This document shows positions 25,692 to 27,791 of a DNA stretch of 27,791 nucleotides, in pieces. The notes beneath the pieces were generated by a model, which saw only the letters and a list, made by a program, of their open reading frames with translations, did no database searches and was not told where the DNA came from. The first letter of the stretch is position 1. Each line of letters begins with the position of its first letter. The position numbers and the translations under genes were made by a program. This stretch comes from a virus (lineage: Duplodnaviria; Heunggongvirae; Uroviricota; Caudoviricetes), in IMG/VR virus record IMGVR_UViG_3300043425_000245. The stretch is one strand, 5' to 3'.

Positions 25692-26131
25692 AGAAAAAGT
25701 GGGTTGATGCGTTCATGGATACAGCCGAGCGATTTGCTCAGTTGTCCAGTGCAGTCCGTCTAAAGGTCGGCGCAGTTGTTGTGAAAGACAACCGCATCAT
25801 CTCTATCGGCTACAATGGTATGCCAGCTGGTTGGACTAATGAATGCGAATACGAAGTTGGGTTGAACCCACTCGGCACCGCTGTTGGTGAAAAAGTACTG
25901 AAAACGAAAGACGAGGTAATCCATGCAGAAGCTAATGCTATCGCCAAACTGGCTCGTGATGGCGAGTCCGGACTTGGTACTGATGTGTTCTGTACTCATG
26001 CTCCATGTATTCAGTGTGCTAAGATAATGTATGGTGCAGGTGTCAAGAAGGTTTATTATCGAAATACATATAGAGACACCAAAGGGTTGGACTTTCTAGA
26101 GAAGTGTAATATTGAAATCGAAAGGGTTTAA
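25688..26131 (+). CDS. cd: dCMP deaminase
   Basis: VGAVVV, IGYNG, HAEANA, PCIQC zinc motifs. Confidence 0.92.
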   Translation: MKKKWVDAFMDTAERFAQLSSAVRLKVGAVVVKDNRIISIGYNGMPAGWTNECEYEVGLNPLGTAVGEKVLKTKDEVIHAEANAIAKLARDGESGLGTDVFCTHAPCIQCAKIMYGAGVKKVYYRNTYRDTKGLDFLEKCNIEIERV

Positions 26132-26132
26132 A

Positions 26133-26582
26133 ATGTCAGTTACAATTAAAAATCTTGAGTCAGCCTTGGCTGGTGAGTCTATGGCTCATATCAAGTATCG
26201 CTATTTTGCAAAGATCGCACGTGAAGAAGGCTTTGAAGAAGTTGCTAAACACTTTGAGCATACCGCTGAACAAGAAGTTAAGCATGCTTGGGGTCACCTA
26301 GAACTTTTGATTGGTCGCCCAAATACACGCGAGTGTTTGGAGAAAGCTATTGAAGGTGAGACATATGAGTTTACAACCATGTATCCAACCTTTGAAGCAA
26401 TCGCTGCTCAGGAAAATCATGCAGTCGCTCGTGGTGAATTCCTAGAGCAGATTGATGAATCTAAAGAACATGCTGCACAATTCGCAGCTGTATTGAAGAA
26501 AGCCGAAGCACGTTTCAAGGCACTCAAGGGTGTTGAAGAACGTCATGCTAATGCGTACAAAGAAGTCTTGAAAGGATTGTAA
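26133..26582 (+). CDS. Rubrerythrin-family di-iron protein without fused rubredoxin domain
   Basis: NL..A.AGES.A..KY..FA..A..EG, EVKHA, GETYE, ESKEH. Confidence 0.9.
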   Translation: MSVTIKNLESALAGESMAHIKYRYFAKIAREEGFEEVAKHFEHTAEQEVKHAWGHLELLIGRPNTRECLEKAIEGETYEFTTMYPTFEAIAAQENHAVARGEFLEQIDESKEHAAQFAAVLKKAEARFKALKGVEERHANAYKEVLKGL

Positions 26583-26583
26583 A

Positions 26584-26727
26584 ATGTCAGATCAAAAAGA
26601 AGTTATCTACGTTTGTGTTGTCTGTGGTCACACATTGAGCGAAGCCGATTGGTTGAGCCTTCCTGACACTGTAAACTGCCCAGAGTGTGGTGTACACAAA
26701 GACGACTACGTCCGTACAGAGTTGTAA
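26584..26727 (+). CDS. Rubredoxin (47 aa), not in the ORF track
   Basis: YVCVVCGH...W..LPD...CPECGV.K..Y. Confidence 0.85.
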   Translation: MSDQKEVIYVCVVCGHTLSEADWLSLPDTVNCPECGVHKDDYVRTEL

Positions 26728-27018: not shown

Positions 27019-27050
27019 CGATACGTCTAACTTCTATTTACCAAAACCCC
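26996..27050 (+). promoter_or_regulatory. Antiterminator hairpin
   Basis: GGGGTTTTGGTAA (26996-27008) is the exact reverse complement of TTACCAAAACCCC (27038-27050), which includes the terminator 5' arm. Confidence 0.78.
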
Positions 27051-27081
27051 GAAGATGAAAATCTCGGGGTTTTTTGTTTTT
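27043..27081 (+). terminator. Intrinsic terminator (attenuator)
   Basis: AAAACCCCGA(A)GAT-GAAA-ATCTCGGGGTTTTTTGTTTTT. Confidence 0.9.
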
Positions 27082-27097
27082 AGCGATCAAAAATCGC

Positions 27098-27126
27098 TTG
27101 ACTTAAATTAGGAACTGCGTTATAAT
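27098..27126 (+). promoter_or_regulatory. Sigma70-type promoter for the tRNA array
   Basis: TTGACT-17-TATAAT. Confidence 0.82.
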
Positions 27127-27253: not shown

Positions 27254-27327
27254 TCCTCCATGGTGTAACGGTAGCACAACGGGCTTTGAACTCGTTAGAA
27301 TTGGTTCGATTCCAATTGGGGGTGCCA
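27254..27327 (+). tRNA. tRNA-Gln (UUG)
   Basis: Cloverleaf; anticodon arm ACGGG-CTTTGAA-CTCGT; TTCGA T-loop; encoded CCA; U1:U72 mismatch. Confidence 0.9.
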
Positions 27328-27334
27328 AACAAAA

Positions 27335-27420
27335 GCACACTGCAGCTGAGGCTAGGCTGTTATGTGGAGCATAGCTGGATCAATAGTATCTGGTCATCGG
27401 TTCAATTCCGATAAGTGTGC
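27335..27420 (+). ncRNA. tRNA-like RNA (class II, Ser-GGA-like), atypical, no CCA
   Basis: GCACACT/AGTGTGC acceptor; D-like arm; GGA in the loop; long variable arm; ATCGG-TTCAATT-CCGAT T-arm. Confidence 0.55.
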
Positions 27421-27451
27421 TTTTGTTTGGTTCAATTAACAGGAGAAAGTA

Positions 27452-27598
27452 ATGAAACGAAAACAAATGGCTGCTCCTCGTGAACGTAATCAGTTCGTGG
27501 CTGCAGCCCTATTCCGAAAAGCGGGTGCCCACTGTAAATCCAACAAGGCAGTCCGTCGTAAACAAAAAATGGATGTCTTAAAAGGGTTTGTAGTTTAA
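27452..27598 (+). CDS. Small basic protein (48 aa) whose stop codon lies inside tRNA-Lys
   Basis: SD AGGAG 6 nt before ATG; MKRKQMAAPRERNQFVAAALFRKAGAHCKSNKAVRRKQKMDVLKGFVV*. Confidence 0.72.
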   Translation: MKRKQMAAPRERNQFVAAALFRKAGAHCKSNKAVRRKQKMDVLKGFVV

Positions 27599-27660
27599 CG
27601 GCAAAAACATCTGGCTTTTAACCAGTAAGACTCTCGGTTCGAATCCGAGCAGACCCACCA
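27584..27660 (+). tRNA. tRNA-Lys (UUU)
   Basis: GGGTTTG/CAGACCC acceptor; CTGG-CTTTTAA-CCAG; CTCGG-TTCGAAT-CCGAG; ACCA. Confidence 0.92.
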
Positions 27661-27672
27661 AGAATTCTTAGG

Positions 27673-27746
27673 GGTGGGCATAGTGTAGTGGTAGCACCCA
27701 ACTCTGTGAAAGTTGTAGTATGGGATCGTAACCCATTGTTCACCCC
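27673..27746 (+). tRNA. tRNA-His (GUG) with G-1:C73, atypical T-loop, no encoded CCA
   Basis: CAACT-CTGTGAA-AGTTG anticodon arm; T-loop ATCGTAA; 3' end reads CCT. Confidence 0.78.
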
Positions 27747-27759
27747 TAAGAATTTTTAT

Positions 27760-27791
27760 GCCGATGTAGCTCAGTTGGTAGAGCAGCGGAT
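27760..27791 (+). tRNA. 5' half of a tRNA truncated by the window end; isotype unknown
   Basis: GCCGATG-TA-GCTC-AGTTGGTA-GAGC D-arm. Confidence 0.75.

Follow-up and report, generated by a model that had tools for sequence, protein, structure and literature searches.

The window analysed here, a stretch of 27,791 nucleotides of viral DNA (Caudoviricetes; IMG/VR record IMGVR_UViG_3300043425_000245), ends at its 3' side in a transfer RNA (tRNA) operon that consists of a promoter, tRNA-Gln, a long stem, a small open reading frame (ORF), tRNA-Lys, tRNA-His, and a further tRNA. The subject of this report is the small basic ORF (27452..27598, + strand), which encodes 48 residues followed by TAA when read from the unprocessed RNA, and the tRNA-Lys(UUU) into which it runs (27584..27660, + strand), which was called by ARAGORN, scored 65.5 bits with Rfam, and has an encoded CCA. 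The ORF contains 8 Lys and 6 Arg, giving a net charge of about +12, and is preceded by the Shine-Dalgarno sequence AGGAG (27441..27445, + strand), located 6 bases 5' of the ATG at 27452 and conserved in relatives L003-L008; the strong ribosome-binding site and the Lys/Arg-rich reading frame reported in the initial annotation of this DNA were thus confirmed.

The distance from 27452 to 27584 is 132 bases, or 44 codons, which places the +1 base of tRNA-Lys at base 1 of codon 45. Positions 1-15 of the tRNA are read as codons 45-48 and the stop (GGG TTT GTA GTT TAA), with TAA at tRNA positions 13-15, and the last four codons and the stop therefore lie within the tRNA, as had been stated. The conserved core of the protein (residues 10-36, RERNQFVAAALFRKAGAHCKSNKAVRR; 27479..27559, + strand) was delimited using a family alignment, A1, and synonymous codon use, and is followed by a variable tail (residues 37-44; 27560..27583, + strand) that ends at the predicted cut by ribonuclease P (RNase P). 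This cut, at 27583/27584, was placed using the tRNA +1 given by ARAGORN and the established action of RNase P, and a messenger RNA (mRNA) ending at 27583 is without a stop codon.

A family of small basic proteins

The ORF at 27452-27598 is a real gene and not a chance frame, because it has homologs, an invariant core, RNxxVxxxLFRKAGxHxKxNKAxR, and synonymous codon variation. A word-indexed search recovered 66 homologs of 40-78 residues, and an exhaustive profile search of 50%-identity clusters recovered 601 cluster representatives at E <= 0.001. The core reads RNxFVxxALFRKAGxH, then KxNKAxR, in A1, where R12, N13, F15, V16, A19, L20, F21, R22, K23, A24, G25, and H27 are invariant and the tails past about residue 38 are hypervariable in both sequence and length. 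Among 81 distinct core DNA sequences, entropy was 1.38 at third codon positions versus 0.62 and 0.40 at first and second positions, all six codons were used at invariant Arg and at near-invariant Leu, and both codon families were used at the commonest Ser position.

The family is a large, unnamed group of basic proteins of 40-60 residues. It is encoded within the tRNA arrays of phages, and one branch of it is chromosomal and belongs to Burkholderiales. No model in Pfam (hmmscan, E up to 10) or NCBIfam matched the ORF, and PHROGs gave a single weak match to phrog_25811, a group of unknown function (E = 0.0075). DUF7230 (PF23876), which had appeared as a weak protein-atlas lead (rank 43, 10% of members), was rejected; the PF23876 model gave no match in ten GC-rich family members or in the nearest phage record. 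The peptide was modelled by AlphaFold2 as two helices with a predicted local distance difference test (pLDDT) score of 76, and a Foldseek search of the PDB with this model returned no structural match.

The only named phages found to carry the family were Synechococcus phage BUCT-ZZ01 and Acidovorax phage ACP17, a GC-rich query having given none. The BUCT-ZZ01 copy is annotated as hypothetical, and its ORF likewise runs into tRNA-Lys. The ACP17 copy (L001, 2501-2653) is unannotated, lies between two annotated genes, and has no tRNA within 2.5 kb; no ATG, GTG, or TTG occurs 5' of its conserved PRERN, and its stop overlaps the start of the next gene (ATGA). A scan of species genomes for the family, performed with a narrow search pattern, yielded nothing real. 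The core motif was not found in the literature searched, nor was any paper on the family, on phage-encoded rescue peptides, or on nonstop mRNAs made by RNase P.

Endings of the ORF in 147 loci

Loci were taken from viral contigs (two rounds) and metagenome contigs (one round), together with single look-ups, and the ORF, the tRNAs, and long helices were placed by script in each of the 147 distinct loci so obtained; a caveat is that part of the helix calls in high-GC contigs are dubious. The stop lay within a tRNA, or further past its 5' end, in 69 loci and inside or behind a hairpin in 47, and 31 had a stop of their own. The initial annotation had named homologs that usually stop well before any tRNA as an observation that would speak against it; most phage copies instead stop in tRNA-Lys or in or behind a long hairpin.

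The tRNA entered is tRNA-Lys(UUU) in 68 of 69 cases, the remaining one being an unassigned ARAGORN call. Overlap into the tRNA ranges from 10 nt, where the tRNA's own TAG at positions 8-10 provides the stop, to 188 nt, where the whole tRNA is read through, and the long "proteins" of this family in databases are the core plus translated tRNA. The exact meeting of tRNA +1 with the codon boundary after K44, to which the initial annotation had drawn attention, holds in the window and is not conserved, since the 69 loci are evenly split among the three phases (23/23/23). On a tree of the cores, near-identical sequences differ in reading phase, so the position of the stop is unconstrained. The distance from the invariant His codon to tRNA +1 is 39-65 nt (median 49), and the junction with tRNA-Lys is retained while the upstream neighbour of the ORF varies freely.

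The hairpin class includes one AT-rich phage clade that is well supported on the core tree (Shimodaira-Hasegawa-like approximate likelihood ratio test, SH-aLRT, 98). In this clade the hairpin is a near-perfect stem of 15-27 bp whose 5' arm starts 41-56 nt past the His codon, the same distance from the core at which the tRNA begins in the tRNA class. The frame is never closed 5' of the hairpin, and its stop is found in the loop, within the 3' arm, or further downstream. As judged by eye and without tabulation, most of the inspected differences between arms amount to G-U pairs in the + strand RNA, and compensatory changes distinguish the hairpin types. In the loci examined, the arm sequences occur only at the tail of this gene, by which a repeated mobile or punctuation element was ruled out, and Rfam detected no hidden tRNA in the tails of the clade. 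Adjacency to tRNA-Lys has mostly been lost here, and a His, Thr, Met, Cys, Arg, or Gly tRNA comes next. Core, hairpin, and tRNA-Lys occur in series in L178, L210, and L211, where the frame is open past the hairpin and is closed within tRNA-Lys.

Several features of these tails were recorded in addition. A TATAAT-like box is present in the 3' arm of tail hairpins of all types, and in L053 (~1630-1672) and L055 (~1640-1680) the loop adds TTGACA 17-18 nt 5' of that box, so that the hairpin in these two loci looks like one hiding a consensus promoter for the downstream tRNA. L195, L197, and L212 contain a tRNA-Lys relic, comprising about the first 17 bases and including the ORF's stop, which starts about 47 nt past the His codon and is fused to a longer tRNA-like sequence that has a good T arm and no ARAGORN call. 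The tRNA-Lys of L146 is truncated past the anticodon arm.

The copies with their own stop are heterogeneous. A few end 1-6 nt 5' of a tRNA; a subgroup has its stop in a minor hairpin with tRNA-Lys (mostly CUU, one UUU) 68-140 nt further on; some are in ordinary operons; and 12 of the 31 are high-GC copies without tRNAs, of a type found in Burkholderiales genomes. Relatives on this high-GC branch are annotated as hypothetical proteins of fixed length, mostly 53-60 residues, in Thiomonas, Polaromonas, Hydrogenophaga, and other Burkholderiales. They have no constant partner, being found with LemA-GIDE-RlmL in Thiomonas and with EamA and BPSS1818 in Polaromonas, and the chromosomal copies examined adjoin neither a tRNA nor the RNA ligase RtcB.

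Control ORFs of at least 80 residues, each lying in one of these loci just 5' of a tRNA on its own strand, were used to gauge the overlap. About 10 of 32 stopped inside the tRNA, nearly all of them through TAG at tRNA positions 8-10, and the remainder stopped 1-20 nt before it. At tRNA junctions the family stops inside in 69 cases versus before in 5 (69/74), in all phases (Fisher p = 9e-11, a value inflated by relatedness). Core and tRNA are separated by a tail of 7.2 codons on average, which no stop interrupts in 96% of in-frame readings, versus 74-78% of off-frame readings. What is notable is the lack of a dedicated stop combined with a processing structure placed right past the core in two structural forms, and not the length of the tail. 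Array genes that end in the next tRNA were seen in L025, L034, L063, L070, L072, L075, L076, L087, and L094; they include HNH and GIY-YIG endonuclease-like genes, and most stop at the tRNA's U8-A9-G10 (TAG). Their messages should be made nonstop by RNase P as well.

Proposed nonstop regulation and competing explanations

RNase P cleaves at tRNA +1, and ribosomes that arrive at stop-less mRNA ends are substrates for trans-translation, by which the product is tagged for degradation. Because the cut is made at +1, each tRNA-Lys that matures leaves an upstream RNA containing a ribosome-binding site and the ORF and no in-frame stop; that RNase P cleaves here and that the mRNA so made is nonstop both follow from established biochemistry. 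In mitochondria, excision of flanking tRNAs makes mRNA ends, ORFs abut or overlap tRNA genes, and partial stop codons are completed by polyadenylation. The arrangement described here resembles this tRNA punctuation in that an ORF abuts or overlaps a tRNA whose excision would make the mRNA end. To our knowledge no such completion of stop codons exists in bacteria, and the processing product here, unlike that in mitochondria, would therefore be a nonstop mRNA.

We tentatively favour the reading, to which a probability of roughly 0.42 is assigned, that the family is a nonstop-gated peptide that accumulates only when transfer-messenger RNA (tmRNA) is saturated or disabled and that most likely acts on the translation machinery. 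The operon transcript would be cut by RNase P at tRNA +1 (27584), giving a short mRNA with a ribosome-binding site and without a stop. Ribosomes would reach its 3' end and stall, and the product would be tagged by trans-translation for degradation. An untagged peptide of about 44 residues would accumulate only if tmRNA were saturated or disabled, for example in infected cells with heavy damage to mRNA or tRNA. By analogy with ArfA and BrfA, which acquired equivalent wiring independently, its target would most likely be the machinery of translation, and the first guess at its action is that it frees stalled ribosomes. Selection of the nonstop layout as a regulatory device is inferred from the comparison of loci, and a ribosome-rescue activity of the peptide is a reasonable guess: its size and charge, the invariant His amid basic residues, and the wiring of the gene would suit a factor that inserts into the vacant mRNA channel. 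RtcB is encoded within 3 kb of the ORF in L165, L194, and L207, all of them short or phage-like loci, lying 3 nt upstream in L165 and accompanied by HNH and Band_7 genes in L194, and these neighbours slightly help the rescue interpretation. For the hairpin clade two mechanisms may be considered: an arfA-like cut within the stem, or a hairpin that would serve as a protective 3' end after RNase P action, 13-18 nt then separating the stop from the terminus.

The models for this proposal are the alternative rescue factors of bacteria. ArfA (YhdL) serves some beta- and gamma-proteobacteria as an alternative ribosome-rescue factor that depends on RF2; its mRNA is cut by RNase III or terminated at a hairpin, so that ArfA accumulates only when tmRNA is limiting. 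The E. coli arfA message was found to fold into a 20-bp hairpin, which its stop follows at a distance of 18 nt. Like ArfA, the present family is small and very basic and has a conserved N-terminal portion of about 40-45 residues followed by a variable, dispensable C-terminus; in both, the reading frame runs into an RNA structure ahead of the stop, a hairpin in arfA and a tRNA or a hairpin here. The family differs from ArfA in that truncation would mostly proceed through a tRNA cut by RNase P and not through an RNase III site or terminator, and in that the gene is phage-borne and located in tRNA arrays. The ArfA-like regulation suggested in the initial annotation stands as a matter of layout: a predicted 3'-end-forming structure before the stop, comparable to those of arfA and brfA, is shared across homologs, namely by 69 of the 147 loci in the tRNA class and by the hairpin clade.

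Kinship with ArfA, which had been raised with reserve, did not survive comparison, and membership of the ArfA family (PF03889) was rejected on sequence tests. PF03889 did not match the family gene in the nearest phage record, and hhalign of A1 with an ArfA alignment, A2, gave a probability of 0.14% over 5 columns, in which only LFRK is set against LFRQ. A profile search of PDB chain sequences matched no ArfA, BrfA, or ArfB chain, the lone match being a chance one to topoisomerase I (E = 3.3). The KGKGS motif is absent, as had been noted, and there is no conserved contiguous KH, the core in A1 reading KAGxHxKxNKAxRR; the KH motif of ArfA lies in its C-terminal tail, the part that enters the mRNA channel (PMC8012679).

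Both arfA and brfA give nonstop mRNAs controlled by trans-translation (PMC8012679), and ArfA, BrfA, and ArfT are held to have arisen independently (PMC8012679; PMC6299226). BrfA (YqkK) of Bacillus subtilis is, like the present peptide, a small basic factor, with a terminator before its stop and regulation by trans-translation (PMC8012679), and its case shows that nonstop wiring arises repeatedly; the family differs from it in truncation device and in hosts. Similarity to BrfA was rejected, none having been found in the PDB-sequence profile search; BrfA is contained in entry 6SZS (PMC8012679). ArfT of Francisella tularensis is likewise a peptide of about 40 residues, similar in size and charge, that recruits release factors to nonstop ribosomes (PMC6299226). 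Its motif is KKGGSTNKK, and no nonstop mRNA is involved in its regulation (PMC6299226), whereas the family has no KGG motif. Membership of the ArfT/KGG family, marked by a KGG/KKGGS motif (PMC6299226, PMC6514570), was also rejected, the motif being missing from A1 and no Pfam or NCBIfam model having matched.

Several observations weigh against a nonstop-gated peptide acting on translation. No similarity in sequence or predicted fold to known rescue factors was found. Own stops occur in 31 of 147 loci, including the twelve high-GC copies of Burkholderiales type that are free of tRNAs and whose relatives are of fixed length, which implies that the peptide can work when it is made conventionally. 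The 3' arm ends 0-4 nt 5' of the next tRNA in many hairpin loci, and the nonstop status of that clade depends on a putative cut within the stem. Stops of ordinary array genes also overlap tRNA 5' ends, so tight packing alone would yield part of the pattern; stop-free tails are no more than moderately enriched; and, because related loci are not independent, the p-values overstate the case.

Much of this would be expected if the ORF encoded an ordinary small phage protein translated mainly from the precursor RNA, with the stop supplied by the tRNA or hairpin under pure compaction and the nonstop fragments a tolerated by-product. We regard this as somewhat unlikely. It accounts for the other array genes (HNH and GIY-YIG endonucleases) that end inside tRNAs or 1-20 nt before them, for 5' spacers that are minimal too (16-27 nt past the preceding tRNA), for short tails, which chance alone leaves open in about 76% of off-frame readings, and for the ordinary stops just mentioned. 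It accounts less well for the contrast between ordinary genes, which overlap mostly through TAG at positions 8-10, and the family, which overlaps in all phases and reads 80-188 nt into tRNAs; for a tRNA-Lys junction that is kept while the upstream neighbour varies; and for a gene-specific hairpin that appears as a second structure at the same distance from the core. Each mature tRNA-Lys would, moreover, still leave a stop-less mRNA that the cell must handle.

The near-constant identity of the tRNA entered, Lys(UUU) in 69 loci when the one unassigned call is counted with the 68 assigned ones, points to another function, in which the peptide would bind or protect tRNA-Lys or block an anticodon nuclease of the PrrC type, the overlap welding peptide and tRNA into one unit. 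Anticodon nucleases, classically PrrC, are known to attack tRNA-Lys(UUU), and phage tRNAs have been proposed to counter tRNA-cleaving defences (PMC10264068); a further small group of loci has tRNA-Lys(CUU) at a distance, and RtcB, which repairs cleaved tRNA, is near three loci. Such a counter-defence role is nevertheless improbable, given that the hairpin clade mostly lacks adjacency to tRNA-Lys, the Burkholderiales chromosomal copies examined are beside neither tRNA nor RtcB, and no similarity was found to known nuclease inhibitors. A role in cis, in which translation of the ORF would steer folding or maturation of the downstream tRNA as a control of tRNA-Lys supply or as an arrest peptide, is very improbable. 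The ORF does overlap the acceptor and D arms of the tRNA, Lys codons are conserved at three core positions, and the entire core would be within the exit tunnel once a ribosome is at the mRNA end. Against this, there is no run of Lys codons of the classical leader-peptide type, residues other than Lys are the most strongly conserved, and the spacing between core and RNA end differs among loci by 8-9 codons, a variation that arrest peptides do not tolerate. Copies that stand alone in chromosomes or belong to operons are also known with no tRNA beside them, and the effect would be incoherent, opposing tRNA folding in one class and opening a leader hairpin in the other.

In its most far-reaching form, which we consider unlikely, the nonstop-gated reading would hold that a fourth rescue peptide, of independent origin and acting by recruitment of release factors, is encoded by phages and by some Burkholderiales, that the phage supply is gated by trans-translation through tRNA excision by RNase P, and that the factor, a spare tRNA-Lys, and sometimes RtcB form a kit against defences that cut tRNA and mRNA. 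Within that form, removal of a message's only stop by tRNA excision would be a device not described before. If the favoured reading were true, phages would have their own sensor-controlled peptide for ribosome rescue or translation repair, tRNA excision would double as a gene-regulatory cut, and a new type of nonstop-mRNA switch would stand beside arfA and brfA. It would also bring a testable function into the long debate over what phage tRNA arrays do, accounting for part of their role, and would put a name to at least 601 sequence clusters, a family now missed by gene callers or extended by spuriously translated tRNA. More small rescue factors beyond the reach of homology searches are expected in a review (PMC8012679); looking for small basic ORFs that run into processing structures, as here, offers a practical route to them, and the Burkholderiales copies a culturable system for genetics.

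Other features of the tRNA operon

The operon probably starts at a sigma-70-like promoter, TTGACT-17-TATAAT (27098..27126, + strand), identified by consensus match alone, with 11 of 12 consensus positions matching. A terminator-like hairpin with a T-run (~27044-27075) lies 5' of it. The upstream attenuator proposed in the initial annotation is more simply explained by this hairpin and promoter, which together span 27044-27126; the sole Rfam match in that interval was a rimP leader at 22.6 bits, far under the 47-bit threshold. The first tRNA of the array is tRNA-Gln(UUG) (27254..27327, + strand; ARAGORN; Rfam 56.7 bits).

A long stem (27325..27430, + strand) begins within the CCA of tRNA-Gln and closes a tRNA-like insert. 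Its arms, CCAAACAAAAGCACAC... and ...GTGTGCTTTTGTTTGG, pair over 17 perfect bp and the pairing is extendable (fold z = -4.8); neither ARAGORN nor Rfam called a tRNA in the insert. The stem is kept in relatives L004, L007, and L008 (~1370-1500), where the interior is swapped for unrelated sequence of other length, and the stem rather than the insert thus seems to be the conserved part. The small mRNA would have its 5' boundary at this stem, a candidate site for a double-strand RNase.

Downstream of tRNA-Lys, tRNA-His(GUG) (27674..27746, + strand) was called by both ARAGORN and Rfam, and a further tRNA on the + strand starts at 27760 and is cut by the end of the window. Just 5' of the operon, in the interval 26112-26727, a rubrerythrin-domain gene of 156 residues is directly followed by a rubredoxin-like ORF of 47 residues with two CxxC pairs. 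The large phage represented by the window also encodes ribonucleotide reductase and an NAD salvage pair.
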